Source: Lytechinus pictus (taxonomy: Eukaryota). Taken from it: DNA of 64,000 nt. Shown piece after piece: positions 9,884 through 56,799 of this stretch (position 1 is its first letter; every line of letters begins with the position of its first letter). Location: contig NC_087250.1 of NCBI RefSeq assembly GCF_037042905.1, positions 6,388,001 to 6,452,000 on the forward strand, given 5' to 3'. Below the pieces are notes generated by a model. That model saw only the letters and a program-made list of their open reading frames with translations, did no database searches and had not been told where the DNA came from. A program made the translations under genes and the position numbers.

Positions 9884-10307
9884 GGCCCGAATTAAAAAAG
9901 GTGGTTTTGAAAACTCCGGTTGAGTCCATGCTTTATGGAGATTTCCTGTATAAATTACGCTTATTTACAGCGTATATCAAAATATGTCCAATGCTGATGC
10001 GCGCTTTTGTCACAGTGCGCCAAATTGACGCCTGTTACCGTGGTTATCCACGGTATTTTAATCACGAGTCCACTGTTTTGAATTAATGAGTCCACTCTTC
10101 AAACAGTGGACTCATGAATAAAATAGCGTATCTAACCATGGTAACAGGCGTCAATTTGGCGAACTGCGACAAAAGCGCGCATCAGAATTGGAAATTTTTT
10201 ATACACGCGCCAGATACGTGCTAAATTAAGCGTAATTTATACAGGAAATCTGCATACACCATGGACTCAACCGTGGGTTTTCAAAACCACCTTTGTGAAT
10301 TTGGGCC
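9884..10307. mobile_element. Palindromic MITE (possibly PIF/Harbinger type) nested in another GCGGATCC-type MITE (~9810-10908)
   Basis: GGCCCGAATT...AGGTGGTTTTGAAAAC / GTTTTCAAAACCACCT...AATTTGGGCC, a near full-length foldback with a 3-bp AAT duplication. Confidence 0.75.
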
Positions 10308-21807: not shown

Positions 21808-22776
21808 GCGTGACGTCGAGAAGAACTTAGCTGAAATCAGGGTTGAATACTCAGGTTATACCATCTTGGTTCATTTTGGTTCGCCTACTCAAGCGGTTAT
21901 AGACCCCAAAACCTTGGTAGTGCACAAAGGGGCTAGAGCAATTTTCGATGTTGATACAAAATACAATGGAGATGGTAAGTCGTTATCCCCATACATGTAC
22001 GTGAGAGACTATATTGATGTGCCTAACCAGGTAATCCCCGGCCTCCTGGCTCAAAAAAATATTTATAAATATCAAGCGGGGGAAAGGAGGGGGGGGGGTG
22101 TTGCATAGCGACCGAAAAAGAGAAACACATTTTTAAATATACTACTCATTTTGACAATACCAGAAGAAATTCCCTTAATAAGTTGTACAATAATTCCGTG
22201 TGTAATACATTTCATTATTTATTTAATTTCATATTAGCTTAATTATCATTTCCATAATTTTCATTTTCATTTTGTCATTTATTAGATTAATAAATATAAG
22301 CTTTCTGAAGAGATGACTACCAGGTTGTGGTCCTGTCTGAGATCCTTCAACTCACTGAACCATCTATGCATCTCAGACTCATCTCTCAGTTTCCCTTCAT
22401 CTTCGATTGAACTGTTATCCGTCACAAAGCTATCAACTGAGAAAGTGACGTCACAATGCTATGAAGGTCTGATCTCATCTCTCCCTGGTTTGGTAATTAT
22501 CGAAATCACTATTGATGATGCAGAGGGAGACATACATCAGATTACGGCCGTTCTCCGTCGGACAGGAGGACAGAGACTCGAAGGCATCATTCTTCGCAGT
22601 ATTCCGCTATCACTCCCGACGCGGAATATGATAAGACCAGGTCTGCTGTTCGAAAAACATACCGATAGCATGAAAATTATTAAATTGGATGGATCTGGAG
22701 AAATGAATGCAGAAGGATGCGTTGAACTCCTCGAGTCGTTGGTATTTTTGGCATCACTGGCTTATCTTCAACTGGA
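21808..22776 (+). pseudogene. Second, 5'-truncated NLR-like paralog: exon remnant ~21808-22030 plus LRR-like exon 22286-22776
   Basis: The 22286-22776 translation (LSEEMTTRLWSCLRSFNSLNHLCISDSSLSFPSS...TKLS) aligns with exon 1021-1556 and has the same phases (0 in, 2 out; TTAG acceptor, GTGAGT donor). The upstream remnant (SRDVEKNL...SPT) weakly resembles the end of exon 1-429 and ends at phase-0 CAG|GTAATC. Confidence 0.6.
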
Positions 22777-23617
22777 GTGAGTTGTTATTTTCTAGACAAT
22801 AAAATCCAAACAAATCATTGTAAATTCCAAGCATCCAGGTGGTAGGAAAACGAATAGTTGGTTTCTTAAGTGAAGTGGAGATTGAATTAAATTTAGTCAG
22901 CTATTAAGAATAGGCAAATTATGAAATCGTTATGCCAAGTTCCAATAGTACTAGCTTACATAGCGATTGCAGGAGAAAACCGCGGACTTAGAAAAGTATA
23001 GCGTATTATGCACCATTCTGTGTCATCATTACGATTGAAACGTTTGTTAAGGTCTTAAACTGTAAACTCCTGCTATAGAGTAACTCGCTCCCTAGCTTAT
23101 TGAAAATGTGTCCAGTGTGTGCGCGTACTACCTCTGTGGTGCTTGGTACAATTTGTTTGTACACCAACGCATCGGATGCACGCATAGGATCCACTGCATG
23201 CACACGTACACGATCGCCAATGATTTGCTCTAAATGAAAAATATGCTGCACTTTTTTGTCTTAAATCTATTTTATTTTGTGATGAGAAAGATATTTTTTT
23301 AGAATGGACTACAACCCCCACCCCAAAAAGAAAAACTTAACCAGTTGAAAAAACAAACAGAGTGTTAGTGCGTGAATATTTTACAAATTAGAATAACATG
23401 GATATAAAAATTTAAAACAGGGAAACAGGGGCAGCGTTGAACATTTTCATTTGGAGAGGGAAGGGGGGGGGGACAAAAAGAGTACTTAGTATGTCAAGAT
23501 TTGAATTTTGGTGCAAACGTATACATGTCACCATATACCATCTGCGTGAAAAAGTAGGGTGTTTTGTAGTAATTTATAGGTTGAGGAGAGTCTTATTGAA
23601 CTGATTTATGAGATATA

Positions 23618-24437
23618 CAGTGCGTCCCAGAAAAACGAAACCGATATTTAGCGATGATTTATCATAACTTAATCATAAATAAAATAGACAAATGACCTAC
23701 CAATGTAAAGCTTAGAATCTCCCCTTTCATCTGCTATTACTTAGATAATTCCTCATTCACGCATGAGTGAGCAAAAATAATTTGAAGAAAGGATACAAAA
23801 AAAACTAATTTGGCGGGGGGTATCTGGATTTCAAAAAGAAAATCACATGACTAAAAAGTTCAATATCAGCTCTTTTCTTTGAATTCTTAATCACAGAAAA
23901 TGGTCAAGAAGTAAAAAAGTTATGATCCCTCGAAACAATGCTTGTATTTCCATAGTTTCATTAAATAAACGTGTTTTCACCGGTTTCCCACAGAAGCTAT
24001 CGCACGGTAACAAAAGACTTAATGCATGGCTGATCGTCAACAAAACGGAGTGTCGAGTGAGTTTGAACGCTAGCCTGTAAAACCTCTTCATTTTATGAAA
24101 TTATTAAAATTCAAGCCTTATTTCAAATAACCAGAACTTTGTTATTTCTTGACCATTTTCTGTAATTGAGGTATCAAATTAAAGAACAGATATTGCACTT
24201 TTTAGTCATGCGGTTTTCTTTTTAAAACCCAGATACGGCCCGCCAAATGAGTTTTTTGTATCCTTTCTTCAAATTGTTTTTGCTCACTCATGCGTGAATG
24301 AGGAATTACATAAGTAATACCAGATGAAAGAGGAGATTCTAAGCATTAAAATGGTAGGTCATTTGTCTATTGTATTTGTGATTAAGTTATGATAAATCAT
24401 CGATAAATCTCGGTGTCGTTTTTAGTGGGACGCACTG
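23618..24437. mobile_element. Tc1/mariner-type foldback MITE
   Basis: TA|CAGTGCGTCCCA ... TGGGACGCACTG|TA with long inverted arms. A partial copy lies at ~55425-55955. Confidence 0.8.
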
Positions 24438-24698: not shown

Positions 24699-24794
<96 letters not shown>

Positions 24795-24815
24795 TGCGTG
24801 TGTGTGTGTATATAT
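24699..24815. repeat. (TA)n(TG)n microsatellite
   Basis: Direct reading. Confidence 0.95.
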
Positions 24816-27800
24816 AGAGAGAGGGCCTTCGATCAGAAAAGGAACCTGTTATGGACTGCATTCAGTGACTTATGAATAGGATAGGCCTACACATCTCGCC
24901 AATCGAATAATGCTTACCTGAGGCTCGAGCAGAATTTTTGTGATATTCCAACCTGAAAACTGAACATTCTAACATTTTTTGTCGCCATAAATATGAATAC
25001 TTTTGTAAATAATAATTGATGCTAGCGCGGAACGCGAGAAATTTTTTGTAACATTCCACACTTAGATACTGGACATTCTGGATATTTTGAAATCCATAAT
25101 CATATGATAAGTACTAGCTTAATGAATAATAAGTGATGAAGCGGGAAGCACAAGCCAAAAAATTAGTGATTTTCGTGTATTATTTTACTTCTAAAAAAGT
25201 ATATTTGTTAGAAAAAGACATATTTCATTTTGAAAAAGGTCTCCAATTTGGAAAAAACATTTCCTTTTTCCTACGGTTATTTTTTTTTTTGAGGGGATGG
25301 GGACAAGGGGGCACTTGGGGGCATGTGCCTCCTGCCTCCCTGTGATATAGTGATTTCTCAAAGTGGAACTAAAAAGATCAACATAAACCCTAAATTATCA
25401 ATGAAAATATGTATTTGTTTATAGATTATTTTATGGAAATAACAAATGATAAGGATAATGAAGTATTAAAGAGGAGAAAGTTATCCAATTATTTTCTTTG
25501 TGTATCTAAACGATGAAATGACAATATTTTTTGCAAATAAGATATTTCCGTTTATTAGGATTAAACTCTGGATTTCATTAGATGACAGCTTAAAGGTTCC
25601 CCAAAGCTTGCAAAGCTTTAAACAAAATATAAAAAAACACATTGTTTTCCAAATACATAAACCTCAACAGTGACTGACTTGAAGAATATTTTTTTTCTCT
25701 CCCCCTCTCTCTTTCTTTTACTTTAACATAAGCTTTTACATTTTATTTAGTTTTGCACTGGTAATTGTTGGCACATTAACAAAAATTTTAATTTGTGCGT
25801 TACATTTGTATTTGCACCCTATATGTAACATTGTAATTGTTCAATGTATGCAGTCATCAAAACAGTGTTGGGCTAATTTTGCATTTTACTTTATGAAAAA
25901 CAAATTATAATTATAGGCCTACTATTCGTATTTTCGGGATCTAGGAACCTTCTCCGATTTACTGCTCTTAGTTATTCAATACTTTGTTAAGTTTCTATAC
26001 ACATTTACTTTTTCAAATTAACATTTGAATAAAATTGTTCTTTGTTTATCATGTATGTATGTATGTATAATGTATGCATTATTGTAAATTATAATTATTT
26101 TCTAGTTATTACTATGAATTGTAAATCAAATGAAAAAAATGCACTTAAATCAAATCAACGTGTGGTACCAAGAAAGAGATTGTACATCTTTCCTCGTTCG
26201 TTGTGCTCGCTTGTATTATTTTAAGAAACAGACAAGTTCTGTAAAGAAAATAAATTGGCACATCTGGCGAGTACGATGACAAGATTCTTGGATTCGCACT
26301 CTAGTCTATAACTTGTTACAAAATTGAAAGTGCCCTTTTTTGCAAAATAAAATATGCAGCCATTTTCTGTTCTCTTGTTTTCGCAAAATTTACAAGATAT
26401 TTTGAGGTATCAAATGTATATTTCAGAAAGCAAATACCACTCCTTACTGATAATAATAATAACTGCATTTACGAGTGCCTATATAAAAGATACAAAACAT
26501 TTGAAAAAAAAAATACAAAATGGCCTCGAAATGGAGGAGTCGCCTTAATTTTCTGAAATTCAGAGCAGATAACCTCTCACCAAGTTATGTTGCTACCTTG
26601 GGCAGGTTAACATTTCATCATTAACAAAACCTACATCCAGTCACAGCAAAGTGTCAAATCAAGTGGTGGAAGGGATGGCTCCATCAACCGGTGCTTTTAT
26701 TATATAAAAAATATTCAATTTCATTTCATAACATTATTTAAAATATTACTAACAGGAAAAGTAGGTCTGTACATGAAATGCAATCACCATGATCACCATC
26801 ATCAATATTTTGTTAATAAAATCACTTATATTCACATCGTCATGAATATTCATTGGGTGGGCTGATGATGTCACATCCCGCTTCCCTTTTTCTTATGTTA
26901 TAACATGAAATCAGAAATGTTTCATTTTGTCGTACATATGTAAATAATGTGTCTCCATTATGAGGAAATAAGTTGCGGCAGTAAATAACTGATGCACTGA
27001 TCAGTTGTCAATCCAATTGTTCTAGTTCTTGGTATAATTTTTTTTTAATAGACCCAATTTAATATAATGAAATACAAAATAATAATTGGAGATATGACAT
27101 CATCGGCCCGCCTAATGAATATTCATGAAGACATGCCTAGAACTGTTTCACCGGCACATTGCAAATCTTTAAAATTCAATAACTTCGTTGTTATTCGATT
27201 TTGATCAAACTTTCAGCATTTTGCTTAGTGAATTTTACTCTATTTATTGAGATATAAATATCTCTAGCCTGGACCATCCCTTTCAGGGAAACTCTTTGGG
27301 GAAACTTGTTTATTTGCAAAAGAAGAAAAGCGAGATCTGCAAAGATATCGTTCTCGTAATTTCTTTTGATTTTTGGCCCCGGAAAATTGTCAGCTCAGTG
27401 AATAGCATTTCTCTATAAATTAGCTAAATCGCCGTCCTGGTTAAAAGATAATTTTAGATGTTTCTAAGTGTTCTCATGCTCATCTTTCCTCATATTCGCA
27501 ACATCTTTTCATTTCCACAATAATTGTACTTGCCCCATATCAGTGCTCACACACATTATTCATATATTCTGTACTCTTATGGAATGTCACAAGAAACTTG
27601 CAATTGATCGCAAATCAATTTCAGGTCCCCGAATTAATTGAAATCCATGCATTTCATTGCCTTGTAATTGATTGATGGTCAGCTTCTTGCATCAACAAGT
27701 ATAAATTGATTAGCTTTAGTTTACATTGATCAATCACTTGTAAATTTGCATCATAAATTTGCAATTGATCGCAAATATTTTCTTGCAACACCCCAACATC

Positions 27801-38028: not shown

Positions 38029-38286
38029 TGGAAAAAAAAGGAAAACAACACCCTCTTCAAATAAAAGTTTGGGATGTTGTCATGCTCACGACACTAGAGT
38101 GCTATAAGAGATTAACTTACATTATTCATATATACTGACATAGCTATACCAAACTCGGAAACAGCCTAGATACAGGTTTATCTTCAGAAAACGAAGCTCA
38201 AGAAAATTAAACTAGAAATTTGATATGTCCAAAGGACACAAATGCCCCTGCTTAACGCGATCAGAAATTCATTGAATATGATATGT

Positions 38287-38442
38287 GGAGGTGCCGTGAC
38301 CGAGTGGTCTAAGGTGCCGACTATACATTGAAAGTCTGGGGTTCGATCCCCGGCCACGGCACCTATGTCCGTGAGCAAAGCAATTAATCGACACTGCTCT
38401 TTTATCCTGTATTCAAATAAACAGAAAATGCTATATGCATTC
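38287..38442 (+). mobile_element. tRNA-derived SINE, 5' part (3' remainder at ~41867-41905)
   Basis: GGTGCCGTGACCGAGTGGTCTAAGG (A box) ... GGTTCGATCCCCGGCCACGGCACC (B box and acceptor-like stem), followed by a non-tRNA tail. Confidence 0.8.
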
Positions 38443-38447
38443 CGTAT

Positions 38448-41400
38448 GTGCATTCTCTCGATATTAAACCAGTATTAAAGTGTGATCATAATGCTGTTTC
38501 GATGAAACTTCAGGTGACAACAAAAAAGAGAGGAAAGGGTTTTTGGAAATTGAACAATTCCTTACTTGGTGATGAAATGTATAAAAAAGGCATAACAAAT
38601 GTTATTAAAAAGATCAAAATGGAATATAACAATTTTGATAATCAATTGAAGTGGGAGATGTGTAAAGTTAAAATAAAGGAGTTCAGCATTAAATATGCTT
38701 CTGATGTGTCAAGGAAGAAGAGGGAACAGATAACACACATTGAAAAAAGATATAATCAACTTTGTGAAAAACTTGATAAAGATCAACGTAGCAAAGATGT
38801 AGACGAAATTAGTCGTTTAAAACGTGAGATCAATAAATGGTATGAATATCAATGTAAAGGTGCGTATGTTCGCTCAAGAGCAAGGTGGCTAGAGTTTGGA
38901 GAGAAATCGTCTAAATATTTCTTCCAGCTTGAAAAAGCAAAAGGCAAAAAGAAAGAAATAGACTGTATCGATATAAATGGAAAGATTATTAAGGAAGATG
39001 GGAAAATTTTGTCAAATATACATGAATTCTATACTAAACTGTATCAAAAAGTTGATGTAAGATCTGATTTTAAAGAATATATAGGTAACTTAAAGTTATA
39101 TGTTTTGAATGATGAAGAAGGAAATATATGTGAGGGAAAGCTTACAGAAAATGAATGCTGGCTCGCACTAAAGTCAATGAATCTGAACAAGTCTCCGGGT
39201 AGTGACGGCCTAAGTGTTGAATTTTATAAATGCTTTTGGGAGGATTTGAAACAGATGGTAGTTGCCAGCCTGAATCAGGGATATGACAAAACACAATTGT
39301 CCTCAACTCAAAGTCAAGCCATCCTTACTCTTTTGTATAAAAAGGGCAACAAAAATCTTCTAGATAATTGGCGGCCCATATCACTTCTTAATATAGACTA
39401 CAAATTAGCAGCTCGTGTTTTGACTGTTAGATTGAAGAAAATTATTCATTGCATTGTATCTGAAGATCAGTTTGGTTTTATGAAAAATCGTTCTGCACCT
39501 GAATGCATTAGACTTGTACAGGACACAATTGATTTTTGTCAAAGTACTGAGACACCTGGTATCATTATGTCATTAGACTTTAAGAAAGCCTTTGACACCG
39601 TTAATCATAATTTCTTATTCACCTTACTAGAAGAACTTGGTTTTAAAAATTCGTTTATTAAATGGATTAAGACTTTGTATAATAACGCCAGTGGTAAAAT
39701 AATTAATTATGGTTGGATATCTAAAAGGTTTTCGATTAACAGGGGTGTAAGACAAGGATGTCCATTGTCTGCCCTTTTGTTTATTATTTTGGCAGAAGTT
39801 TTAGCAGCAAAAGTTAAACAGAATTCAAAAATTAGAGGTATTCAAGTACCTAGCCCTGAATCAGATTGTCCAGATTTCATAGATATTCGCATAGTTCAGT
39901 TTGCAGATGATACTACAATTTTTTGCAGATTCTGTCAACTCTGTTAAAGAATAAGGAGAGAAGTAGAAAATTTTGGTAGAAATGCCGGTCCCAAAATTAA
40001 TTGGTCAAAATCTAAGTTCATGAGATTTAATATCAATGTCCAAAACACCGAGGATTTAGAATTTACAGAAAATGCTATAAAATGTTTCGGGGTTTATGTT
40101 GGAAAATTTCATAGAGAAGTTGAAAACTTAAATTGGGAAGGAAAAGAGAACAAAATAAAAAGTACTTTAGATTTATGGAAAATGCGAAAACTAACTTTGT
40201 ATGGGAAGGTTACGGTCATAAAGCATCTAGTCACTTCTCAATTAGTATATACAGCAATAGCAGTCCCAGTACCATTGAAAATAATCAAATTGATTATTAG
40301 ATTAATATACTCTTTTTTATGGAATTCCAAAGTTGAAAAGGTCAAGCGAAATGTATGCTGTAATTCTGAAATAGAAGGAGGCCTCAGAATGGTCAATTTA
40401 CTTTACAAATTTTCTTCTCTTCGTTTATCATGGATTCAAAAGTATATCTCAGGTGAAAAAAAACCATGGAAAATTTTATTCAATTGTTGGATCAGTAAAA
40501 TTTCTGACATTCCTATGTGTTTGAAATTTAATTGCCAAAAAAATGATATAATAAGAATATGCAAAAGAAAACAATTACCAGTGTTTTACATTGACCTTTT
40601 TAGATCGTGGTCTGAAATAAAGTATATGCACATGTTTAATGTTTGCAATGTAAACCAAGAAATTATCTGGTATAATAGTAATATAAAACATGAGAAAGAA
40701 ACGTTATTTTTTCAAAACTGGATCAAAGAGGGGATTTATACAGTGGGACAGGTTATAGAAGATGGGAATTGGAAAGATTTTTCATTTATTAGCAACTATT
40801 TTAACCGCAGACAATTGCTTACTTCTTTCGAATTGTCAAAACTCAAAAAGGCATTTCCACACTTCTGGTTAGAGAAATTACGTAATACAAGAATCCCACC
40901 ACGGCTACAAAAAGAAGAACCCAATGTGATTGAGTTAGCAACAGGTGACTTAATAAATGTCGAGAAAATGTCAGCTAAACACTATTATAGTTTGTTAGTG
41001 GATAAATATAAAGAAGAACCCGTTTGTTTACATTTTTGGCAAGACCGTTTAGACTTGTCAAACGAATTTGATTGGAGTGAAGTATTTAAATTCAAATTTC
41101 AGCAAATTAATGACAATAAAATAAAACAATTTAATTTTAAACTTTTTCACAGAATATTGCCCAGTAAAGACAATTTATGCAAATGGGGAATTTCGAATGA
41201 TAATTTATGTCGTACTTGCAATTGCAAGGAAACTATATGTCATTTTTTATTGACGTGCAAAAAACTGAGGTTATTTTGGAAAATAGTTTCGTGTCTTATT
41301 CGGAATATTTTTGGCCTTGATATTGACATTAATGAAAAAATTATTATTATAGGATATGATATAGGCAACCGAAAAACAAAACTCGTCAATTTCATCCTTA

Positions 41401-41588
41401 ATTATGCCCAATATACTGTATATAAGAATTATGTCAAAGAATGTAATGATCAAAAGAAACATGTGTTACATGGAAACTATCTATTGAAAGATTTGAAAGC
41501 AGAAATAAGATTTCACCTAAGTTTAAAGTATAATCAGAAAAGATTTAATGAAACTGAGTTGCGGAAGATACGTTTTTACTTTGAGTGA
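38448..41588 (+). pseudogene. LINE ORF2 (end of endonuclease, RT, C-terminal CCHC), one frameshift near 39920
   Basis: DH..GFWKLNNSLL, KSPGSDG, NWRPISLLN, LDFKKAFD, GVRQGCPLS, QFADDT, and CRTC...ETICHFLLTC. Confidence 0.9.
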
Positions 41589-41589
41589 A

Positions 41590-41711
41590 TACACTACCAG
41601 TCGCGGTTTTTTGGTCCGCTGTTGGCTGTCTTGTTGGAGCCGGAGAACAGTGCATTGTTCTCTGGTTCTCGACGGGTGACAGCGGCCCGAGGAATTGTGA
41701 CTGGTAGTGTA
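41590..41711 (+). other. Long G-U-rich RNA hairpin at the start of the LINE 3' UTR
   Basis: TACACTACCAGTCGCGG... pairs with ...TTGTGACTGGTAGTGTA over ~55 bp with about a dozen G-U pairs and almost no true mismatches. Confidence 0.75.
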
Positions 41712-42653
41712 AGTACCATATTTTATTGTATTTTTTTGTATTTCTTGTAAAATAGTGTTGTGTGATATGATGTGATTTTGTTAATGTAAAAACCTGTATC
41801 TTTTGATATTTTATGAATGATAAAGTACCTCAATTGAGGATAAATAGAAAAAAAAAATATGCATTCTGGGAAACTAGGTGTGGACTTAAAAAAAAAATAA
41901 AATAATATATATGATTGAACTTAATATCGTGCAGAAACCAATGAACAGATTGAAATCTCTGAACCAACTCACATATTGATGAGCTGTGACCTTTGGACTC
42001 AGAATTCAAACTCAGCCTGTATTTTGGTGTCATCTACCTACATACCAAATTTGTTAACATCCATTAAAAATTTTTTTGTTATTGCACAGAAACCAACTTG
42101 CATATTTAATGAGCTGTGACCTTTGACCTGCGGACTCAGAATTCGAACTTAGCCTGTATGTTGTTGTCATCTGATTACACACCAATTTTTTTCAAATCCA
42201 ATAAACATTTTTGGAGCTAGTGCGAGGATACAAACTTGCATAGTTAATAATGAGCTGTGACCTTTGACCTACGGACTGCGAATTCGAACTTAACCTGTAT
42301 TTTGGTGCTATGTACCTACACACCAAACATTTTTTTAAATCTATTAAATATTTTCAAGTTATTGCATGGAAACCAACTCACATATCTAATGAGCTGTAAC
42401 CTTTGACTTGCAGACTCTGAATTCGAACTTAGCCTGTATTTTGGTGTCTTGTACCTATTCACCAAAAATTGTTTTAATCCATTAAACATTTTTCAAGTTA
42501 TTGCTCGGAAACCAAGTGGGGAACGGACGGACATGGGCAATTAACGCTCAATGCCCCCTCTGGACTTCGTCTGCAGGGGGCATAAAAAGCCTGAATTGTC
42601 ATGTAAGTATCACTGGTGCCATCTCACTATTACTTTTCTACTTTCAACTTGCT

Positions 42654-42892: not shown

Positions 42893-45260
42893 TAACAACC
42901 CCCCCCCCCACCCTCAGGTCCACCATAAATGTTCCAGAATCTACTTAAAGATTCCACATTTAAGGACGTTCCACAGTTATGCTTGTGCGGATATGATCTG
43001 CGCATAATTTACACTCTGCGCGCTGACGTCACAATGGATGAACAGGTGATTAACTAGCTGCGGGTACGAGCTGATTTTTCTCATCTTCTGCACTTTAAAT
43101 GCAGATCCGCTGCGTTATTTCATGAAGCTAAAAAATTGAATTATTCCATGGACCATTCAAAAAAAAATCTATACAATTTCAAAATACTTTACTCTGTAGT
43201 GCTGCCAAGAATCACGAATATTACCCCGAGTTTGAATAAATGGTAGTGATTTTGATTTTTTCTCACATAGATACAAAGAATTCGGCGCATTTTTGGTGTT
43301 TTAAAAAGCACATTTGCTCTAATAAAAATGCTGATAGTTTAAAAACAAGCACATGAACCCCCATTTTTTAATGTTTGTACCTCTTAGGCATACCTTCTTC
43401 TACAACTCTGCAAATTTTGGTGAAAATGACATGGATTTTGAATAAAGTGCAGCATTTATTATACGTTTGTAGTTTCTTACTGAAATTTCAAATTTTTTTG
43501 CACAGTTTACGATCGCATGCAGCTTCAAAATGATAGTATACCCCAAAGAAATGTTTATTTGTATGTTGACAGTCATCTTGTTTCATGCAGTCCTGTTATC
43601 CCCATATTCTGTAAGATCTTGCTTAATGGTAATAATATTTCACTATTATGCCCCACTCTAAAATTATGGATCTAAAATTATGTACTTTTAATTGTCGAGG
43701 GATTCAAGATTATGTGAAAAGACGTAAAGTGTTTCATTATTTAAGATCCATCCAAAGTGACATTACTTTTCTTCAAGAAACCCACTCGTTAAAAGCAGAT
43801 GAAATATTTTGGAAACAGCAATGGGGTGAAAAAGCATGGTTTTCTAGCTATGCATCAAATAGTCGAGGGGTAGCCATTTTGATCCGGAACCATGTATCCA
43901 TGGAAATAGAATTACTTTACTCTGATCCTAATGGGAGATACCTGATAATATCTGCAAAAGTAAATGGGTTGCCCCTTATTTTAGTCAATTTATACGGTCC
44001 GAATAATGATGACCCTGACTTTTTTCTTCAAGTTTTTAGTAAGATAGAACAATTTAACTACACTTCAATGATTTGTGCTGGCGATTTTAATGCGGTCTTA
44101 GGTTCTCTGGATTATCAAGGGGGTAAGGTCACCAAATCAAACAAGAAAGCAAGTGATATGTTATTATTATTGATAGAAGAGTTTAATCTTTGTGATATTT
44201 GGCGTAATTTTCACCCAAACCTTAAGCAGTATACGAGGCATCAAAAATCCCCTAAAGTTTTATCAAGACTTGATTTCATTCTTGTTTCAGATAATTTTGT
44301 CACTAATTGTGTGTAATCTAAAATAGTTCCAGGAATTCAATCTTATCATTCTCTTGTTATTCTAAAATTTAAAGACGCTCAGCCAGTAAGGGGTCCAAGC
44401 TTCTGGAAACTGAATTGCAAGTACTTGCACAATGATGTAAATTTTATCGAAAGTGTTAAAGAGAAAATTGAAGAGTTTAAATTAGTTCATTCTGCAAGTG
44501 ATTGTAACCCCAATATTTTATGGGACTCTCTTAAATGTACAATTACCGGTGCATGTATAGAATACTGTGCACGCAAAAAGAAAGAAAAGAATTTAGCGAA
44601 AAGACATCTTTTGAAAGAAATAGAGGATAAAGATAATAAATTAAGTATTGATGTAGACAATGATGAGCTTTTTTTAAAAAAAAAGAGTTTTTACTGCAAG
44701 CATTAAATGACATCTTAGATGAAGAAACTCAAGGTTTAATTGTTCGGTCTCGAATCCGATGGGCTGAAGAAGGAGAAAAGAGTTCCAAATATTTTTTGTA
44801 ATCTTGAAAAACGAATGGGAGAGAAGAAAAGTATTTTTAAATTAAAAAACGAAAACGATGATATTATTGTCAATCAACCCATTATATTGAAAGAAATTCA
44901 TTCATTTTACGACACATTGTATAGGAAGCCATGCAATGCTGATAATTCAGATGAATCAAGTAATGTAATTAATCATTTTTTGCAATCTATTGAAATTCCA
45001 CAGCTAAGTGATGTCGATAAGGATTTTCTTGAGAAGCCTATTTCTAAAAAGGAACTATATGATACACTGACATCAATGAAGCACAACAAATCACCAGGTC
45101 TTGATGGCTTACCGGCAGAATTTTATATTGTATTTTGGAAGGATCTGTCTGATATGCTATTAGACTCATTCAATTTTTCCTTACAAAATGGGTTAATGTC
45201 GACCTCTCTAAGAAATGGCGTTGTTACTTTGATCCCCAAGAAGGATAAGGACACTTCCTA

Positions 45261-45447
45261 CGAAAGAACAAACAAGTCGACAGACAAGGCGTACAATTGA
45301 ACTCTTCATTTAACACGAACCGCAGCAGGTAGGAGATGCTACCGAAGTGCATACAAAGCACGCAAAAACAGTGAAAACACTTCAACAAGCCAAAGCGACC
45401 ACAAGGTGGCGCTATCACATAAAATACGCAACACACAATTAATGGCG
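45261..45447 (-). repeat. 3' LTR
   Basis: Direct repeat of 51432-51615, preceded on the minus strand by AGAAGGAGTGAAGAAGGGAAAG-TGATCA. Confidence 0.95.
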
Positions 45448-45894
45448 TGATCACTTTCCCTTCTTCACTCCTTCTGGGGGGGGGGGGGTATGATATAACA
45501 GAGATTGCGGAGACACAGATAAACCGAAAAAATGAAAACCTGTAAGAGTGAGTTATAGCCGGTACAAGCATGAGGTACAATCATGACCACAATATTGAAA
45601 GGGAATATGACATAATTGAAAAACAGTTTGTCCATGATAACCACCAGATAGGTACATCACCTATAGAGCTGGCGAAGAAGGGAATGCTTCACACAAAATG
45701 TTCGTTGGAAACACAAGCAAAAAGAACGGGTGAATGACGGAAAGGCAACAATAACCGTCATACTGGAAAATAACGCGACAACCAACTGTGACATCCTAAG
45801 CGTAAGTCCAAAAAGGTAAACGTCACATATAAACGGGGCAAAGGGAGGGGGAGGGGGGGGGTCGATTAGTCACAAATAAAGTCCTCGAAACGAG

Positions 45895-48800
45895 CTAGCA
45901 TGCGTCGACGACGCTGGGGGCGTTGCAGGACAGGGGGGCTACTGGGCGGTGAGGGGGGAGCGTTGTCACAGGTGGAGAACCAGTGGCAACCTCATCATCG
46001 TCGCTCTGTTGGGGATCCGCGGAGTCCAATCGAGGCCGGGAAGGGAAACCAGGCACCTTCAGACAGTCTGACGTCTTCACACGATAAGATGAGTCACGGA
46101 GCTGGGAGCCAACAAATTTCCGTCAACAGAGCCGACAAGGTAGCGGGGGCGTGCCTGAGACTTGGTGCGATCACCACGAAGATTGACCAGGTCGCCGACC
46201 TCAATACTTACATCACCCGGAAGGAGGCCGGATGGGGTCTTCGCACGTTCACTGTGGGGGTGGTTAGCCATACGCTGGTGATGCTGACTGGCGATGAGTT
46301 CTTCGTCAGAAATGGGAATCTGGGCATGGGAGAATCGGTCGCATTGAGTCCATATCTCACGCGCTGACAGGCCTCGCGAACGAAGACCGCTGTTTAAGCG
46401 GGCTGTGGCCAGAGACAACGTCAAAGGAGAGAGGGGCTCGCCGCGAGGAGCATGGCGGAGCAGCTCGTCCTGAAGCTCGCGTATGGCCTTCTCAGCAACC
46501 TGGTTCTTATTGGCATTCTTGGGGCGGCCGAGCTCGATGGATATGCCAAGTGAAGCAAGCTGGTGGTCATCCCGTAAGGAGGAAAAACCAGGGGCAGTAT
46601 CAGTTCGAATGACAGCATGGGGGCCATCGAGTGGATGGAGCTCAACACATAGACGAATGAGAGCTTCACGAAGAGTATCCCGGCGCTCATCAGCAATGAG
46701 GCAAGTAGCTGTGTATGAGGATACAGATTCACGGAGCACAAGGATCAACTGCTTTGCCCGCTTAAGAACATCTGCTGCGAAGTTAACGCCGACAACTTCG
46801 GGGGGATCGCCAGAGGACTGAGAGGCAATTGTAAAGGGAGCAGTGCGGAGAGAAGCACACTGGTGGCATCGATCAGTGACTTGCTTGATGGCATGATCCA
46901 TATCCAGGGCGAAGAAGTGCCTGTTGACAACAGATTTGAGCTGGCTCTGTGTTGGGTGATCAGGTTGGAGGTGAATGGATGTGAGGATACCAGCAAGGAC
47001 GTTCCGAGGCACAATAATGCATTCACGTGGGGGAAAGGAGGGGAACTTCTCTACGCACCACAAGGAGACCGTCACGTGCTATTGTGGCGACGCGAAGATA
47101 TCGCTTGACATCCTTGATGTCAGTCAATTTCTTGGATGGACGCGTCCCCTGATGGAGGTGGGCATGAGTGCGTCGAAGATCAGAACATTCGACCTGGATG
47201 CTGTGCCAGGCCGACCGGGACGTGAAGGGTAGTTTCTCTCGGCCAGCAAGGACTTCACTCGGTGTGATCCGGTGGACAACGGAATCTTCGGTTGTGTGGA
47301 TGAACAAGCAAATCTGACACGAGGGATCAGTGCAAGGAGTAGCATTGCGACTGGCAAAGTCAGAAGGGATGTTAACAGCACCAGCCAGGTGCTGGATAGA
47401 ACACTGATACCTACTGACATTAGAGAGGAAGGTATATACCCGAGGACTTGCAGAGAATGCACCACGACACAGCTTCTCAAAGGCTTGGACGCAGGGTTTG
47501 CTACCCGTGAGAATACACGAGCGGTGACGGGATTGGACCATATATGGGCCGAAATGAGTACAAGCAGCCGTGATGGACAGGGCTTCGACTTCACAGGGCA
47601 ACCATGTGATCTGTCGCCCGCGCAGTTTTGCACTGTAAAAGCCAGCCAGATGATGTTTGCCAGCTCTGGTAACATACATAGTAGAGCTAATTCCATGGTT
47701 CCGGACAGCGCCATCCGTGACGATCCAAATCTGATCAGCTGGATGGGGGAGTGTAATGGTACGAGGAGAGGAAAGGGCATCTCGACAAGCCTGTAAGGCA
47801 TCGTGTAAGTCATCAGACCAGTCAATGCGGTCAGAAGAAGAACGGCCAGCAACAACAGCATCTAAGGGACTGAGCAACACAGCACAATGAGGAACAACTC
47901 GTGAAATCATCTTGTAGGCACCAATGAATGACCTCAGACCCTTGACAGTTTTGGGTAGGTCGCAAGAGGCCAGGGCTGCGACACGATGGGGGCTAGAGCG
48001 ACGAGTGCCCTGAGACCAGATCCAACCAAGAACGCCAGTCGACTTGGGGCAAACGACTGTCTTCTTTGGGGAAAGGCGAAGTCCAGCAGAACGGAGAGCA
48101 TGTAAGACACGAGTCCAATTATCCAATAGCTCATCGGGGGTATTTCTCCCACAAAACAAGTCATCGGCTAATTTGACAACAACACCTTCATGTAACAAAT
48201 CACCAAGAACACGACACATCAGATCCTCAAGAGCTGTTTCTGATCCAGGCATTCCCACAGCCGACCTAGTGTAAACCCTTACTCCGCGAAACGGGGTTAC
48301 CACACCACAATATTTCATTGAGACCTTCGCAAGGGGTATCTGGTAGAAGGCACTGACAAGGTCTGAGGTAATAAGGTATCGTCATTGACCAATATGGCGA
48401 AGGGTTGAGTCAACGTCAGGTAAGAGGGATGGTTGGGGCTTTGAGTAACGTCCAACATCGGCAAAGGCTGTTACGAGTCTAAAACCACCATTGGGTTTCT
48501 TCACCAAGAAAGAGGGATTGAGATACTCTACAGTAATGCCTACATCTTCTGGGTGGGCAAACACACCACACCGACCGAAGTTCAACGAGGGATGGGCGGG
48601 CATACATGGGCAAGCGACCCTTCCGCTGAGGAGGCTGGACCGGCCCCATGTTCACCACTGCCTCAAATGGACCAGCAGAACCGTAGTAACCTGTGAAAGC
48701 AGGATCGAACACGTCATCAAACTCAGAATGGAGCATGACAAAGTACTGCCGTAAGCTAGGAGAGAGGACGCTATCCGGATCTAAAGAGATAGCATCAGAG

Positions 48801-51221
48801 TGTTTAGTTACTCTAGGCACAGAGGGCTGTGGCTTGACCGGCTCAGGTACAAGTGTGCCAGATTTAGTTGGCTCATTAACATACACAGGCCTAACTTGAC
48901 AAAAATGCTCGTTCTTGCGGAGAAGGCGAGGCTCATCCGAGAGGTTTGGGATACGAACTTTTCCTGCCACGCTTGATACGATAAAGGGATTGGGCCATGA
49001 CTGGCGAGCGCTAGAAGGAACTTTCGAACTGACAACACGGGGTTCGAGGGCAACAGTCTCATGGGATAACAAATCAGCAGGAACTGTCAATTCAACAAAA
49101 TCACCAGGCCACAGGACGGTGGACTGCGGAGGGGCACGAAGGACATGTGCCCGACGAACAGAATGTGACTTCTTGTTAGACAAGGGTTTTGAGCCATAAG
49201 TAATCACTAAGTCATCGCCAATGCATATTTGGCGCTTAGCAGGCCGAACGCAGACGTCATTGAATTCCATGAAAGGAGTCCCAGCGAGAACTTCAACATC
49301 CAACTCATGAACAAAAAGGCCCTCAAACACAAGTTGCCGAGATTCACGTGAGAAGGTGAGACATGTTTCCCCTACTACATTGTAATTCCAAGGGAGATAC
49401 ACCATCCGCCTGATGTGCAGATTGCGAACTAGGTTTTATTTCGCCGCCAAGGGCTTGCACAGTTGCGGCACGAATCATGTTACCTGTGGCACCACTGTCT
49501 ACCGTAATACGGGTGGCATGGTGTCCAAAAAACGCATCAAAATACGGAGACTGGCGAATCTGTACTCGCAGGGCAGAAGTTTGAGACTGCTGAGGATTCT
49601 CGTCTGTGGGGCTGACGGTTGATGGAGATCGTTCAGGCTCCCTGGCATCACTGTCGTCGTCAAAGTCCTCGTCTCCAAAGATATTGGCGACTTGACGGGC
49701 TTTGGCTATGAAGCGACGATCTTGTTCAGGCAAATATGTGCAATCGCTAAGGTAATGAGTATCGGGCCAGCGCGCCTCGCGGCAAAGAGGGCGGTATTTG
49801 TTATGACGTGGTTTATTCGAATACTGTGATTTCGTTGTGCGGCGTGGTTGAGCCTGAGTGGGAAACTTGCTCATGCGTCCCTTCCGCTGAGGGAAAGAGG
49901 CAGTAGCACGCATAGCACGAGAGTTTTCGGTGGAGTAAATCTCACCGAGCAGGCTGTTGAGGGCTTGAGAAATCTCTGGCTTGAGAGACGAGAGAGATCG
50001 AGCACGCAGCTCAGTGCCATACCTCTGCTTTACCAGACGAGGGAGATCAGAATGGATCAATTGTAACCATTGGAGGACTAAAAAATTATCAAGTGTAGGA
50101 GTCAACTCTTCATCTTCTGAAATAAATTCACCATGGTGAGATATACCAGCATTAACCTTAAAGGAGAATGAAACTCTTGGAGCAAGTTAGCTTTTGTGAA
50201 AGCAGAAAAATCAAAGAATAAGATCAACAAAAGTTTGAGTAAAATAGGACTAGCAATAGAAGAGTTAGGAGCATTTGAATGTCGAGATCACTAATGCTAT
50301 GGAGATCCTCCCATTGGCAACGCAACCAAGATCTATGATATCACAGATGAACAACTCTCCCCTTTTGGACACTGAAAATACACCCCAAAACATCTATTTT
50401 TGCTCATTCTTATCATATGACAAACGATTCATCAATGATATAATGTTGTGAAACCTCTGTACTTGTCCTCTCATAAAGAGAACACCTCACCTTGTGATAG
50501 ATTCTATAATAAGTGAGAATATAAGTGAAATAAGTACTAAGCAATGAGGGAGTTGTACGTGTGTGACATCACAGATCTTGGTCGCATTGCCAATGGGAGG
50601 ATCTACATGGCATTAGTGATCTCAATATTTAAATGCTCATAACTTTCTTATTATTCATTCAATCTTCCTTAAACTTTCAACAATATGTTTCTTTGAATTT
50701 TTTCTTTGATATGGATTCAGCTGGTTTCAAGGGTTTCATTCTCCTTTAAGGAGATTATCATCAACAAAGGCAAGAATCCTTTGATACAAATCTTCTGGGC
50801 GTTCATCCGCCTCTAGCTTGATAACGCAAAAATCAAGGAAGTGGGCACCACTACTTTGAAAGCCATAATGTAGCCTGATCTTGCCCCAAATGTCACCCAG
50901 TGAAGTAGAATCACGGATTATAGAATTACGTGATATTATCGGGCAGTAATTCGCAATTTGCCCAACCATTAGCTCCAACATGCTCGCTTTCTGTTGGGCA
51001 GACCGCTTTGTCTCTGGCGGCTCGGAAATGGGGTCATTTGACATACCACGTAGTGGGTCACGTTTGGTTTTCTTATGCCATGTAAAATCGGTGCCTAAGA
51101 ATATTGCAAAGTTGGGATCGAGGGTGAGGATGTAAATCAAATTCTGCTTCCAATTCTCAAAAGATGTGACTGATTCGTTTTTGGTGAGACACCATTGTTT
51201 GGGTGCTCTGGGGGTAGCCAT
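45895..51221 (-). pseudogene. gag-pol: gag-pol polyprotein (frameshifted; gag split by MITE)
   Basis: Start [10 protein letters not shown]. Protease [27 protein letters not shown]...GMPGS...KLADDL; RNase H WIVTDGA...EVEAL...SDFASR; integrase H..H..C..C, FAAD, RTD, KNANKNQVAEKA. Confidence 0.9.
50162..50745. mobile_element. Kolobok-like MITE inserted in gag
   Basis: TTAA|AGGAGAATGAAAC ... GTTTCATTCTCCT|TTAA. Removing it restores DNLLKVNAGISHHGEFISEDEELTPTLDN in frame. Confidence 0.9.
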
Positions 51222-51421
51222 AGTTTACTTTTATTATTAGTGACACGAAATTGGATAGATGGGACTATGATACTTGATAGATATACCGTACCGTTATGCC
51301 GAGCCGTGTATGTGAGTGAAGGTTAGTACACTTACCCCCAACCAGCTAGAGTTGGATGCCTGACTGCTAAGCCAGCACGAAGACCGTTTGGGCAGTGAAA
51401 AGGCTAGGATCCGTTTCTGAA

Positions 51422-51431
51422 GCTGCCACCA
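51422..51431 (-). promoter_or_regulatory. Primer-binding site (probably tRNA-Leu)
   Basis: TGGTGGCAGC directly follows the 5' LTR and is complementary to the ...GCTGCCACCA 3' end of eukaryotic tRNA-Leu. Confidence 0.7.
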
Positions 51432-51615
51432 CGAAAGAACAAACAAGTCGACAGACAAGGCGTACAATTTGAACTATTTATTTAACACGAACCGCAGCAG
51501 GTAGGAGATGCTACCGAAGTGCATACAAAGCAAAAACAGTGAAAACACTTCAAAAAGCCAAAGCGACCACAAGGTGGCGCTATCACATAAAATACGCAAC
51601 ACACAATTAATGGCG
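51432..51615 (-). repeat. 5' LTR
   Basis: Direct repeat of 45261-45447; minus-strand ends CGCCATT...CTTTCG. Confidence 0.95.
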
Positions 51616-51841
51616 CTATTTGAAAAATGTTAGACCTATATCTTTGCTCACAGTAGATTATAACATTTTAGCCAAAACTCTTGCAAATCGTTTGAAAAAA
51701 TGTCTCACATATTTGATTCACCCTGACCAATCCGGATTCCTAAAGGGCAGGAATATTTGGGACAATATCAGGTTAATTAATTATATAATAGAAAATACAG
51801 AATTTAACCAAACTGCAGGTACAATTCTCCTTTTGGATATT

Positions 51842-52385
51842 GGATTGGATTGAAAATCACATTTATTTTCTTCAAACAGATACAAAATAATATTTGACAT
51901 AGTAACGAATACAGTATATATTTCGACACAATTTTGAAGGAGGCGAAAACCCGGAAAGCAGAGCTTGAGTTGGGGTCGCCAGATACAAATAAATAACAAG
52001 TTATGTACTGTAATGACATAATATGTAATTGCATATAAATAAGAAAGTTAAGAGTAGAAAAAGAAACACAGATGGAGAAAAGGGAGAGGAAATGTAGGCA
52101 TTAGAAGATAAGTTCATTTGAATAACAGAGTAAACTGGTCGCAATTACGTAACATTGGTACATGTATAAAGAGCTTGAGTGACATTTGTCTAGCAGAGCA
52201 ACAGGTAAGGCATGTGCATTAATTAACATTAGAAATGGAAGGTAGTTCAAGCATGTCAACATGTCGATTATCTCTGTCAGTGCTAGCATTTAAATAAAGT
52301 TTCATTTTATAAGAGAAAGATTGCAAAGAACGAGAGTTTTGTAGGCGGGCTGGTAAACTGTTCCAAAATTTTGGCCCAGAGTAGC
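51842..52385 (-). mobile_element. Strongly 5'-truncated L2/CR1-group LINE 3' end inserted in the L1 RT
   Basis: GGATATT duplicated at 51835-51841 and 52386-52392. Encodes RYSGPKFWNSLP...SF..KMK and ends in a short (CAATC)n tail. Removing it restores LLLDIQKAFDSV. Confidence 0.8.
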
Positions 52386-55300
52386 GGATATTCAAAAAGC
52401 TTTTGATAGTGTTTCCCATGATTTTCTTTTCCATGTATTAAAACAGTTTAATTTTAGCGACAAATTCATTAAATGGATGAAAGTATTCTACTGTTCCAGG
52501 AGAAGCTATGTCACTAATTATGGACATTTGACTAACCCCATAAACATGGAAAGAGGAATTTTTCAAGGGTGTCCCATTTCCCCTTACTTGTTTTTATTAG
52601 TGATCGAAACAATGGCTCTTGCTATTAGACAAAATAAAAACATCAATGGAATTCCTATTGAAAGTACATCTACTGAACTGAAAATTTCTTTGCTAGCTGA
52701 TGATTCTACATGTTTTATTGATGGCTCTGAAAAATCCTTTAAATCATTATTTGAAACAATTGATAATTTTTCTGAATGTTCTGGGTGTAAACTCAATATT
52801 TCCAAATCAGAAGCAATATGGATCGGATCTAAAAAGGGTTCACATTTAGCTCCATTTTCTGAGAATGGTTTGAAATGGAACAAATATTATTTTAAAACTT
52901 TGGGTATACATTTTTCATTGAACACAAAACAATTATATGATCTTAATCATAAGGTGAAACTTAAATCCATTGATAGTACTTTAAACTGTTGGCGCGCTAG
53001 AAATGTATCTCTAGCTGGGAAGATCTGTGTCATAAAGACCCTATTGCTGCCACAACTTCTTTATTTTTTTCAGTATTGTGTATCAAAATACCCAATAAAT
53101 TGTTTAGACAATTGAATGCAATTTTGTTTAGATTTATATGGGGTGTAGGCAGTGATAGGGTCAGAAGACAATTTATATGGAATGATTTTAGTGGAGGTGG
53201 CTTAAAAATGATTGATCCATATGCTTTCTCTGTGGCACAAAAAATGTCATGGGTCAAAAAGCTCCTGGATGATAATTATGAAAGCTTGTGGAAATCAATT
53301 GAAATGTCTGCTTTAAGTCATTTTAATGATAAAAGTGATATTTTATGGAAATCCTATGCTCCTCTCAGTATTTTGAATAAATTAACATCCTTTCAATTGG
53401 CTGAATCACTCCATACATGGTATATATTCAGAGAATATTTTGTCAAAACTGAATTCAATGTAACATTTTCTTCAATAGGTTTTTGCCAGTGCATTTGGTT
53501 TAATAAAAATATCTGTTCAAAATCAAAGCATTATTTTTTGTACCAAGACTGGCTTGACAATGGAATAGTTTATAATAGTGATTTGCTTAACCCTCCCCAT
53601 CCTGGCCATAAACTCTTTGAAGAACTTGTATTAGATTATGATATCAGTAAACACGATAGGAGGAAATGCAATTTTCTATTGAAAAATATACCATCTGATT
53701 GGTTGGTCACATCCGACCTGACCACGGATAAGATATTTGACAAAATAAGAAACCAACTATTGAAAACTCACAAGGTCCCCAAATTTGCATATAGAGTTAT
53801 ATTAGAACCATGTCTTTCAGAAAAACAAATGACTTTTTAAAAAGACCTTGATGATACTGGTCAGGTCAGTTGGGAAAAAAATCATCTAAATAATTTCAAA
53901 TGTACTATTAGTATGCGCATTCGTTCTTTTTATTTTAAGTTATTTCACAGAGCAATAGGTTTAAATGATTTTTTGTATAAAATTAAAAGAAAAGACTCCC
54001 CTAACTGTTCTCTTTGTAAAGCTGCTCCTGAAACGTATGTCCATCTGTTTATAGAGTGTCCTGTTGTTAAACCCATTTGGGTTGAAGCTATTAAGGCTAT
54101 TGCTAAGAAAAGTGATAAACTACAAACTATCTCTATATTTGAAAAAAATGTTTGGTTTTGAGTCCGACAAATTCGTAACTTTTTGGTTTCTCTTACTTAA
54201 ATATTATATTTATATATGCAAATTTCAAAATAAGCCACTAAGTTTTGAAGGTTATAAAGCCTTTATTGCTGTTAACAAAAAACTTGAATATGGTATTGCC
54301 AAAAAAAAATAATAAACTTAGCATGCATTTTCGGAAATGGAGATTTAACATATGACCACTGATATTGCTATTTAGCACATGAAATTTATACATGTACCAT
54401 GTGTACATTTCCATCTTCATTTAAATGTACTTTATCATGTTTATGGGAGTATTTTTGTCTTCTTTTTTTAATGATTGACTTTTCTTTGGGTTTTGCTTTA
54501 CAAGTGGTGTGTAATGCTTATTTGGTATATTATGCTGCAGTATTTATGTTTTGGTGTTTTATATATCTTATTATTATTCTTATCATTATTGTTATTTTTT
54601 TTTGCTGCTTAACTTTTTTTTATTACATGTATATTGATTCGATGATTGTAAACCTTTGAAAATCAATAAAACATATTTAAAAAAATGAAGAAAAAAAATG
54701 AAGAAAAAAAAATTGTATAATTCACGCCAATTATAATTATTCCCTAACAATACATAACTGATAAAGTACGATTCTATCAATAATACTCACGTATTTTATG
54801 GAAAATTGGTGCCGTGTACTGAAGTGATTTTCTCGCATAAACTCCCCATTCAGTGTGCGCGCGTACGTTATATTTGCAATAGGACACTTTTTCGCGAACT
54901 TACCCGTCGAGTTGCGTTATAAGCCAAGGTCGCTTTTAAGACCTTAACAAACGTTTGACCACAAGGTTTTAATGGGGTTTGAATTAAAGGGGCCAACGGG
55001 CCATCTTTTCCTTGATATTATACATGCTATGGGATCTATTAAAACAGTAACTCTTTGAAGTGGGGGATTTGTATTGGATATTCTTTGTTAGCACAATTAA
55101 AACAGCTTTAAACGTTATGAGGCTATCGTTACGTTTCCAGCGGCAGGTATTTTCATCATAATGTTGTCATCAATCGCCCTTTCCCTTTTATTCAAAGATT
55201 TCTCGATGGCTGGTCTTTCGACTTCAAAACAACGTCTGGTGTTGAGGTGAGCATGAGTTGTGTCTAGTATCGAAGAAGTATAGTTTCACTCTAAATTGAA

Positions 55301-56133: not shown

Positions 56134-56799
56134 GGGGTTCTATAACGATGACCCAAAGGACAACCCCCCCCCCCCCGACAACTACTTCAAGGAAAATATT
56201 ATCCCCATATTTGTATCGTCGGGGACGGTTACCCTCCCCCCCCCCCCGGAAATTTACCCTCTAGACGCCAATTACCCCTAGTACGGAGCCTTTCAAATGC
56301 CATTGACTTGACGACATGGCGAGATACTTTATCTTGCCATGTCGACTAAATAAGCTTATTATGTCCGCATGGCGAGATACATTATCCTGCCAAGTCCACA
56401 TATAAAAAGTTATACGTCAACATGGTGAGATATGTTATCTTGCCAAGTCGACTTGTAACAAGTTATATGTCAACATGGCGATATATCGGGATTCTCGCCA
56501 GGACTTGAACACTTCATATCTCGCCATGTCGACATATCGACTTGACAAGATAGAATATATCGCCATGTCGAAATAATAAGCTTATTAATTATACATGGCA
56601 AGATAAAGTATCACGCCATTTCGTCACGTCGATGGCATTTTAAAGGCTCAGTACTAAAGGTACTGAGCCGGGGTAATTGTCTGGAGGATAAATTTCCGGG
56701 GGTAACAGTCCCCGGCGGTAAAAATATGGGGATCATATTTTCCTTGAAGTAGTTGTCAGGGGATGATTGTCCTAATTGGGTTATTGTGTTATAGAACCC
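56134..56799. mobile_element. Foldback MITE with nested inner MITE (~56280-56655)
   Basis: GGGTTCTATAAC / GTTATAGAACCC and CAACTACTTCAAGGAAAATAT / ATATTTTCCTTGAAGTAGTTG inverted pairs; inner AGTACGGAGCCTTT / AAAGGCTCAGTACT with ACATGGCGA subrepeats. Confidence 0.75.

Follow-up and report, generated by a model that had tools for sequence, protein, structure and literature searches.

We analysed a 64,000-nt stretch of Lytechinus pictus DNA (the window), in which a non-LTR retrotransposon of the L1 group carries a long hairpin, rich in G-U pairs, directly after its stop codon. The ORF2 of this element occupies 38443-41588 on the + strand and encodes reverse transcriptase (PF00078) and zf-RVT (PF13966) domains. 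This copy is truncated on its 5' side at the end of the endonuclease domain, contains an in-frame stop at 39945-39947 and reaches its true stop, TGA, at 41586-41588. Full-length ORF2 homologues (39-61% identity) carry PF03372 and PF00078 and have their C-terminal end at the same position, and the best PDB match of one of them, P0001, is L1 ORF2p (E 4e-82), with R2 reaching only 1e-15. An APE endonuclease, a reverse transcriptase nearest to L1 ORF2p, a poly(A) tail (41847-41856, +), 5' truncation and a 10-bp target-site duplication (copies at 38433-38442 and 41857-41866, both +) define its membership of the L1 group. The window element is a dead, 5'-truncated, APE-type LINE copy, whose motifs suggest that it may be Tx1-like. 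Contigs of other copies part into unrelated flanks at 41855-41857, and these differing flanks do not suggest one fixed target. The LINE is nested in a short element (38277-38442 and 41857-41915) with an A-rich tail and a tRNA-like head at 38293-38361, which scores 16 bits against the Rfam tRNA family, below threshold. This short element is flanked by an ATATGAT duplication and lies inside a high-depth host repeat, giving a three-level nested insertion.

The hairpin of the window copy lies at 41590-41711 (+), separated from the TGA by a single A, exactly where an earlier note on this DNA had placed it. Folding yields 53 pairs, in agreement with the roughly 55-bp stem of that note, and 12 of them are wobbles (7 G-U and 5 U-G), with a possible thirteenth as loop closer; the earlier figure of 13-14 is slightly high for this copy and fits the family form described below. 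A-C oppositions had been called essentially absent, and we counted none. The one T-C mismatch that had been noticed is present (U-C, 41615/41686), while a G-G mismatch (41625/41676) had been overlooked; the window copy also has a 5x1 internal loop and a 6-nt loop. When both strands are folded, the minimum free energy is -84.3 kcal/mol for the + strand versus -50.6 for the - strand. The fold has a z score of -12.4, with 0/200 shuffles equally good, and none of the 492 tiles of 130 nt across the window matches the hairpin in energy or in strand difference, the top tile being the one that overlaps it. The hairpin is real and strand-specific. It is also compositionally distinct, with a G+C content of 52%, compared with 23% in the 3' UTR beyond it and 38% in the window. 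A strand-asymmetric fold at 24701-24830, in an (AT)n-(GT)n microsatellite, is a low-complexity artefact and illustrates that G-T-rich repeats can mimic such a hairpin signal.

The mismatch spectrum sets this hairpin apart from palindromes that decay as DNA. As controls we used 11 of the 25 listed inverted repeats of the window, chosen as long and non-tandem; these include long, palindromic, MITE-like repeats with symmetric, ordinary decay at 23631-24423, 50206-50701 (inside a Gypsy-type element), 56172-56762 and 9896-10294. Together the controls contain 34 G-T, 51 A-C and 106 transversion mismatches, so that the premise of the earlier note, that a decaying DNA palindrome should accumulate G-T and A-C about equally, is borne out by these repeats and the hairpin departs from their spectrum. 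The 12:0 ratio of G-U to A-C in the window hairpin has a binomial p of 5e-4, and 14 G-U pairs without any other mismatch, set against the control spectrum, give a Fisher p of 3e-10. Neutral DNA decay therefore fails for the hairpin, because the other palindromes of the window decay in proportions of 34:51:106. The core inference of the earlier note, an RNA-level process, holds up against this comparison of a wobble-only, sense-strand duplex with the control spectrum. The wobbles are not spaced along the stem more evenly than at random (p 0.69).

Twenty listed runs from nine studies contain part of the stretch, and four of them, from four studies and under two organism labels (A and B), were examined; run X1 is possibly the window's own source, and the RNA nature of X2 and X12 is a guess. 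In all four runs a single contig runs from the end of ORF2 into the hairpin, and in organism B a 5587-nt contig passes through the hairpin to the poly(A). Folding of the contig sequences gives a family form of 141 nt with 65 pairs, 13-14 of them G-U, a 4-nt loop and bulges of 1, 5 and 1 nt, at -102 to -104 kcal/mol. This form has no non-wobble mismatch, and its G-U pairs are divided evenly between the arms (7 and 7). The four contigs differ alike from the window in one extra base, five hairpin substitutions and 18 additional apex letters, and the U-C of the window copy is U-G in the family form. Judged by these contigs, the U-C and G-G mismatches and the short apex are private to the window copy. 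That copy is about 3% divergent from the contigs, assembly error possibly being part of this figure, and the copies of organisms A and B differ by about 1%; derivation of all four contigs from one locus is opposed by their differing flanks and by the 3% divergence. Because the family-form contigs already carry 13-14 G-U pairs, the wobbles would predate the window insertion and belong to the amplified form. In X1 the contig depth is 835 at the hairpin, compared with 13-29 in minor contigs, depth being no copy number, and the overlap of contig ends is the best explanation for a rise in depth at 41668-41719. In the same run, three contigs join the hairpin at 41654, in the apex, after unrelated letters (agreement 0.63), weakly suggesting that 5' truncation occurred at the loop.

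Variation among the contigs, which omit rare variants, is sparse. We found four variants: in organism B, A-U in place of G-U at 41603 and an altered 5-nt bulge; in X12, a register shift at 41670; and in two X1 contigs, loss of the 3' bulge. Two of these come from minor contigs and one lies inside a bulge. All four retain 65 pairs, with a ddG of -0.9 to +2.0, compared with a median of +3.8 for random substitution. Two of the five substitutions private to the window copy break a pair, and 18 nt are missing at its apex; deletion of a bulged A improved folding there, so that not every private change is harmful. Compensatory changes on both sides of a pair did not appear among the contigs, which are too alike to reveal them. 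This variant pattern leans to constraint on the fold without proving it.

The likeliest origin of the hairpin is a captured MITE-like palindrome. Its ends read TA-CACTA...TAGTG-TA, with the CACTA...TAGTG termini at 41592-41709 (no strand assigned) and TA on either side, and may mark a captured CACTA/CMCT-type MITE. Elements of the CMCT clade have CA..TG ends and duplications of 2-5 bp, and ESTA uses TA, as described in the cited part of PMC12730594. The window termini thus agree weakly with CAC...GTG ends and a short duplication: the flanking TA is self-complementary and may be a mere part of the stem, which makes it a weak terminal criterion, and a 3-bp duplication is absent. A sister contig (X1, record 4) shows about 85% identity to the family over 41268-41569 and matches it again from 41823 for 30 letters. 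Between the two matches it would hold 128 letters, compared with 269 in the family, and 269 - 141 = 128; this sum assumes that the 30-nt match ends the contig, as the 30-letter overlaps of contigs suggest. Together with the terminal motifs, a sister contig that appears 141 nt shorter suggests that the palindrome was captured.

These ends and the foreign base composition would also be expected if a separate MITE had inserted into this dead copy alone and then undergone decay at the DNA level, but we find that reading hardly credible. The hairpin is at the same place in 4/4 runs under two organism labels, its mismatch spectrum is unlike that of DNA palindromes in the same window, and no examined contig fits both arms. 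The earlier note had set against its own reading a segment that is missing from other LINE copies and present elsewhere as a free MITE with symmetric divergence. What we found is a hairpin in the LINE of all four runs and no free copy of the palindrome, either in the 64-kb window or among the contigs of these runs. The MITE and cis-element ideas are compatible: the segment has MITE-like ends and now moves within the LINE.

How, then, did the palindrome come to contain only wobbles? Our best explanation, which we hold with not quite even confidence, is that a captured palindrome has been retained as an RNA duplex by selection, with wobbles tolerated. The insert would have been a short palindrome rich in G+C, probably a MITE of the CACTA/CMCT type, that landed one base past the ORF2 stop of the family's active master; it has since been copied along with the LINE, as its presence in the contigs of all four runs shows. 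Each new copy goes through RNA, which would expose the sense-strand fold to selection. Changes that open the duplex (A-C oppositions and transversions) would be purged, and changes from A-U or G-C to G-U kept, which is the pattern seen in the hairpin. The folded insert may preserve the old spacing from the stop codon to the U-rich region and poly(A) tail. Wobbles would cost the DNA palindrome much more stability than they cost the RNA helix. The calculated RNA energy of the family form is -103, compared with -107 if all wobbles were A-U or -134 if all were G-C, and the corresponding DNA hairpin energies are -45, compared with -71 and -85. A long RNA duplex could in this way be kept while a perfect inverted repeat, prone to deletion or silencing, is avoided. 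In plants, according to the cited portion of PMC9263138, G:U hairpin transgenes escape inverted-repeat methylation, a result that may not transfer to an animal; the small number of variants (n=4) and the lack of a double-sided change among them also weigh against the selection reading.

In a rival account, which needs no function, ADAR would have hyper-edited a perfect palindrome in the RNA of the LINE, the inosines being read as G by reverse transcription and the products fixed in the master lineage. We regard this as possible though doubtful. It accounts for the one-strand, G-U-only pattern without selection, and the conversion that it requires, 14 of about 38 paired A (37%), compares with near 50% in an inverted repeat of avian retroviruses, as given in the cited text of PMC12925331. 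Reverting the wobbles to A-U would give a parental G+C of 42%, and reverting them to G-C 62%; the A-U reversion suits editing, since 42% is nearer the 38% of the window. The earlier note had also considered that the G-U positions might be A in the family. The contigs are already G-U at 13-14 sites and 41603 alone is A, in organism B; this A/G difference is the sole paired-site difference between organisms A and B, and is of the kind that editing predicts. Sequence context is less favourable. A 5' G precedes 2/14 changed sites versus 6/23 unchanged ones, which is the expected direction, but with 14 sites and low power neither this depletion (p 0.34) nor 3' G enrichment (p 0.66) nor 5' U/A enrichment (p 0.81) stands out, unlike the ADAR motif as described in the cited passage of PMC4365171. 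A 5' C precedes 6/14 changed sites. A model in the other direction, with C at CpG decaying to U and selection acting as a filter, is at least as good a fit (8/16 CpG versus 6/25 other C, p 0.085, again with low power). Whichever of the two routes applied, we tentatively suggest, as a possible rather than a probable outcome, that an active LINE family made a captured palindrome from a DNA transposon into a natural G:U hairpin, by fixed ADAR edits or by selection, and in doing so shed the perfect DNA inverted repeat while retaining the 65-bp RNA duplex.

Among the relatives examined, the hairpin has not been found beyond this family. Scans for related loci returned 54 from metagenomes, one from GTDB and none from viral contigs; 27 of these 55 were kept, and 28 were excluded for a frame short of the expected C-terminal stop or for a contig end. 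The 27 are 22-43% alike in their best segment, near-duplicates included. None of these distant relatives has a comparable fold within 160 nt past the stop, the lowest z being -2.7 versus -10.8 for the window, and when all 55 loci were scanned for stems with G-U pairs allowed, nine had stems, none of them both G-U-only and long. The nearest metagenomic relative, L001 (53%), was considered as a hairpin-bearing locus and set aside, with a tRNA-like insert (L001:938-1012) that interrupts its ORF2 and cuts the locus, and a z of 0.02. DNA patterns for the arms and for the tail had no match in viral or GTDB contigs, as expected of an animal repeat. The seven Rfam matches up to E 10, miRNA hits included, were all far below their gathering scores. 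We found no description of such a hairpin in the open-access literature searched, Repbase and Dfam entries and subscription papers lying outside that search.

This distribution bears on whether the hairpin is a specific signal, bound by a protein or cut to small RNAs, for instance as a recognition site for ORF2p, as a transport signal like that of the I factor, or as a substrate through which Dicer would adjust expression of the element itself. Such a role seems unlikely to us. A duplex of 65 bp is long enough for Dicer, and the three bulges are kept in the family form. Bulged stem-loops act as ORF2p sites in L2 LINEs (PMC4176376, in the part cited) and as a dynein transport signal in the I factor (PMC13186709, likewise). 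Against these points, the relatives lack the hairpin, the sister contig with the terminal 30 nt has no room for it, the 3'-strand bulge is lost in two minor contigs and no Rfam family reaches threshold. The top 22-mer duplex between an arm and ORF2 is an interrupted match to the antisense strand, an uncontrolled comparison. Of the cis-element roles raised in the earlier note, recognition by the reverse transcriptase is accordingly the weaker proposal, since in the sister contig the last 30 nt are retained and space for the hairpin is lacking. We propose that the hairpin is a family-specific acquisition and not an ancient RT-recognition signal.

A better candidate for ORF2p recognition is the terminal tail. 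Beyond the U-rich remainder of the 3' UTR (41712-41811, +), the last 35-45 nt (41812-41846, +) are common to many contigs with unrelated upstream letters and contain both a signal of the polyadenylation type and, at 41828-41839, a stem of 4 bp capped by a 4-nt loop. Their candidacy rests on analogy with the stringent LINEs, as those are described in the cited parts of PMC4176376 and PMC3747384. Very short truncated copies could explain the shared tail in all contigs except X1 record 4. The tail at 41812-41857 recurs in many contigs of both organisms, with joints from 41569, 41733 and 41769, and several families or SINEs may possibly share it.

A stop-codon readthrough or selenocysteine recoding element, which a strong stem directly after a UGA brings to mind, is in our view very improbable. 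In the family form the reading frame continues for 45 open codons past the UGA, but such a run has a chance probability of 0.12, the stop stands in a UGA-A context, the RTGA words fall within the paired helix, on its 3' arm, and homologues terminate at the same position. The candidate was rejected on finding neither a SECIS quartet core nor a leaky context with a conserved extension.

Among known systems, the hairpin is a LINE 3' UTR structure that is unusual in length, position and likely origin. Stringent LINEs (UnaL2, ZfL2-1/2 and the monocot L1 lineage) likewise carry a bulged 3'-UTR stem-loop, which the cited parts of PMC4176376 and PMC3747384 describe as short (a region of about 50 nt in plants), near the 3' end and with conserved compensatory changes. 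The hairpin studied here is 141 nt long with 65 bp, abuts the stop codon and lies 135 nt from the poly(A). The stringent type is marked by a position close to the 3' end and by conservation among related families or in partner SINEs, which contrasts with 0/27 relatives and no room in the sister contig; the separate 4-bp terminal stem is the closer analogue. CACTA/EnSpm (CMCT clade) MITEs share the CAC...GTG ends, palindromic body and flanking TA (PMC12730594, in the portion cited), whereas the hairpin spreads within a LINE, with no free copies found, and its arms diverge by G-U alone. The Egl-BicD signals (the ILS of the I factor and the K10 TLS) are also bulged stem-loops, in the I factor within LINE RNA, but by the account in the cited section of PMC13186709 they are short and depend on U-A pairs and 3'-strand bulges, the ILS lying in the coding sequence of an insect element.

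Two further parallels concern the wobbles. ADAR-hypermutated inverted repeats of avian retroviruses show A-to-G changes that are likewise confined to an inverted repeat in a reverse-transcribed element; in the text cited (PMC12925331) their unedited parent is identified, whereas the hairpin lacks the neighbour signature and is fixed across a multi-copy family. Engineered G:U hairpin-RNA transgenes in plants keep the RNA duplex while wobbles break the DNA inverted repeat, but these are artificial, with all changes being C-to-T on one arm in the constructs described there (PMC9263138), and the LINE hairpin is natural, with wobbles on both arms. For a transposon, long stretches of double-stranded RNA are normally a burden, yet this family carries 65 bp of it beside its stop codon, apparently in recently amplified copies of two organisms. 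If the selection account is true, the hairpin would represent a type of LINE cis-element that has not been reported, and a natural counterpart of G:U hairpin design; if the editing account is true, it would be a clean case of RNA edits made heritable through retrotransposition. In the event of either a fixed-edit or a selected G:U hairpin, the 65-bp duplex could be a substrate for Dicer, ADAR or transport, and copies of different age would form a dated record of RNA-level changes written into an animal genome.

The window also holds other mobile elements. A second, unrelated L1-group copy (43636-54680) has endonuclease and RT parts with frameshifts and is split by an LTR-type element. Its 3' UTR is T-rich and without a hairpin; the z score after its ORF2 end is -0.9, in line with the earlier note, which had seen no obvious equivalent there. 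Two broken Gypsy-type LTR retroelements with RT, RNase H and integrase domains lie at about 45270-52390 (-) and 61682-63563 (-), the former within the second L1. Two similar-looking, Pfam-negative open frames with leucine-rich spacing, at 1021-1560 and 22286-22780, are perhaps exons of duplicated host genes.
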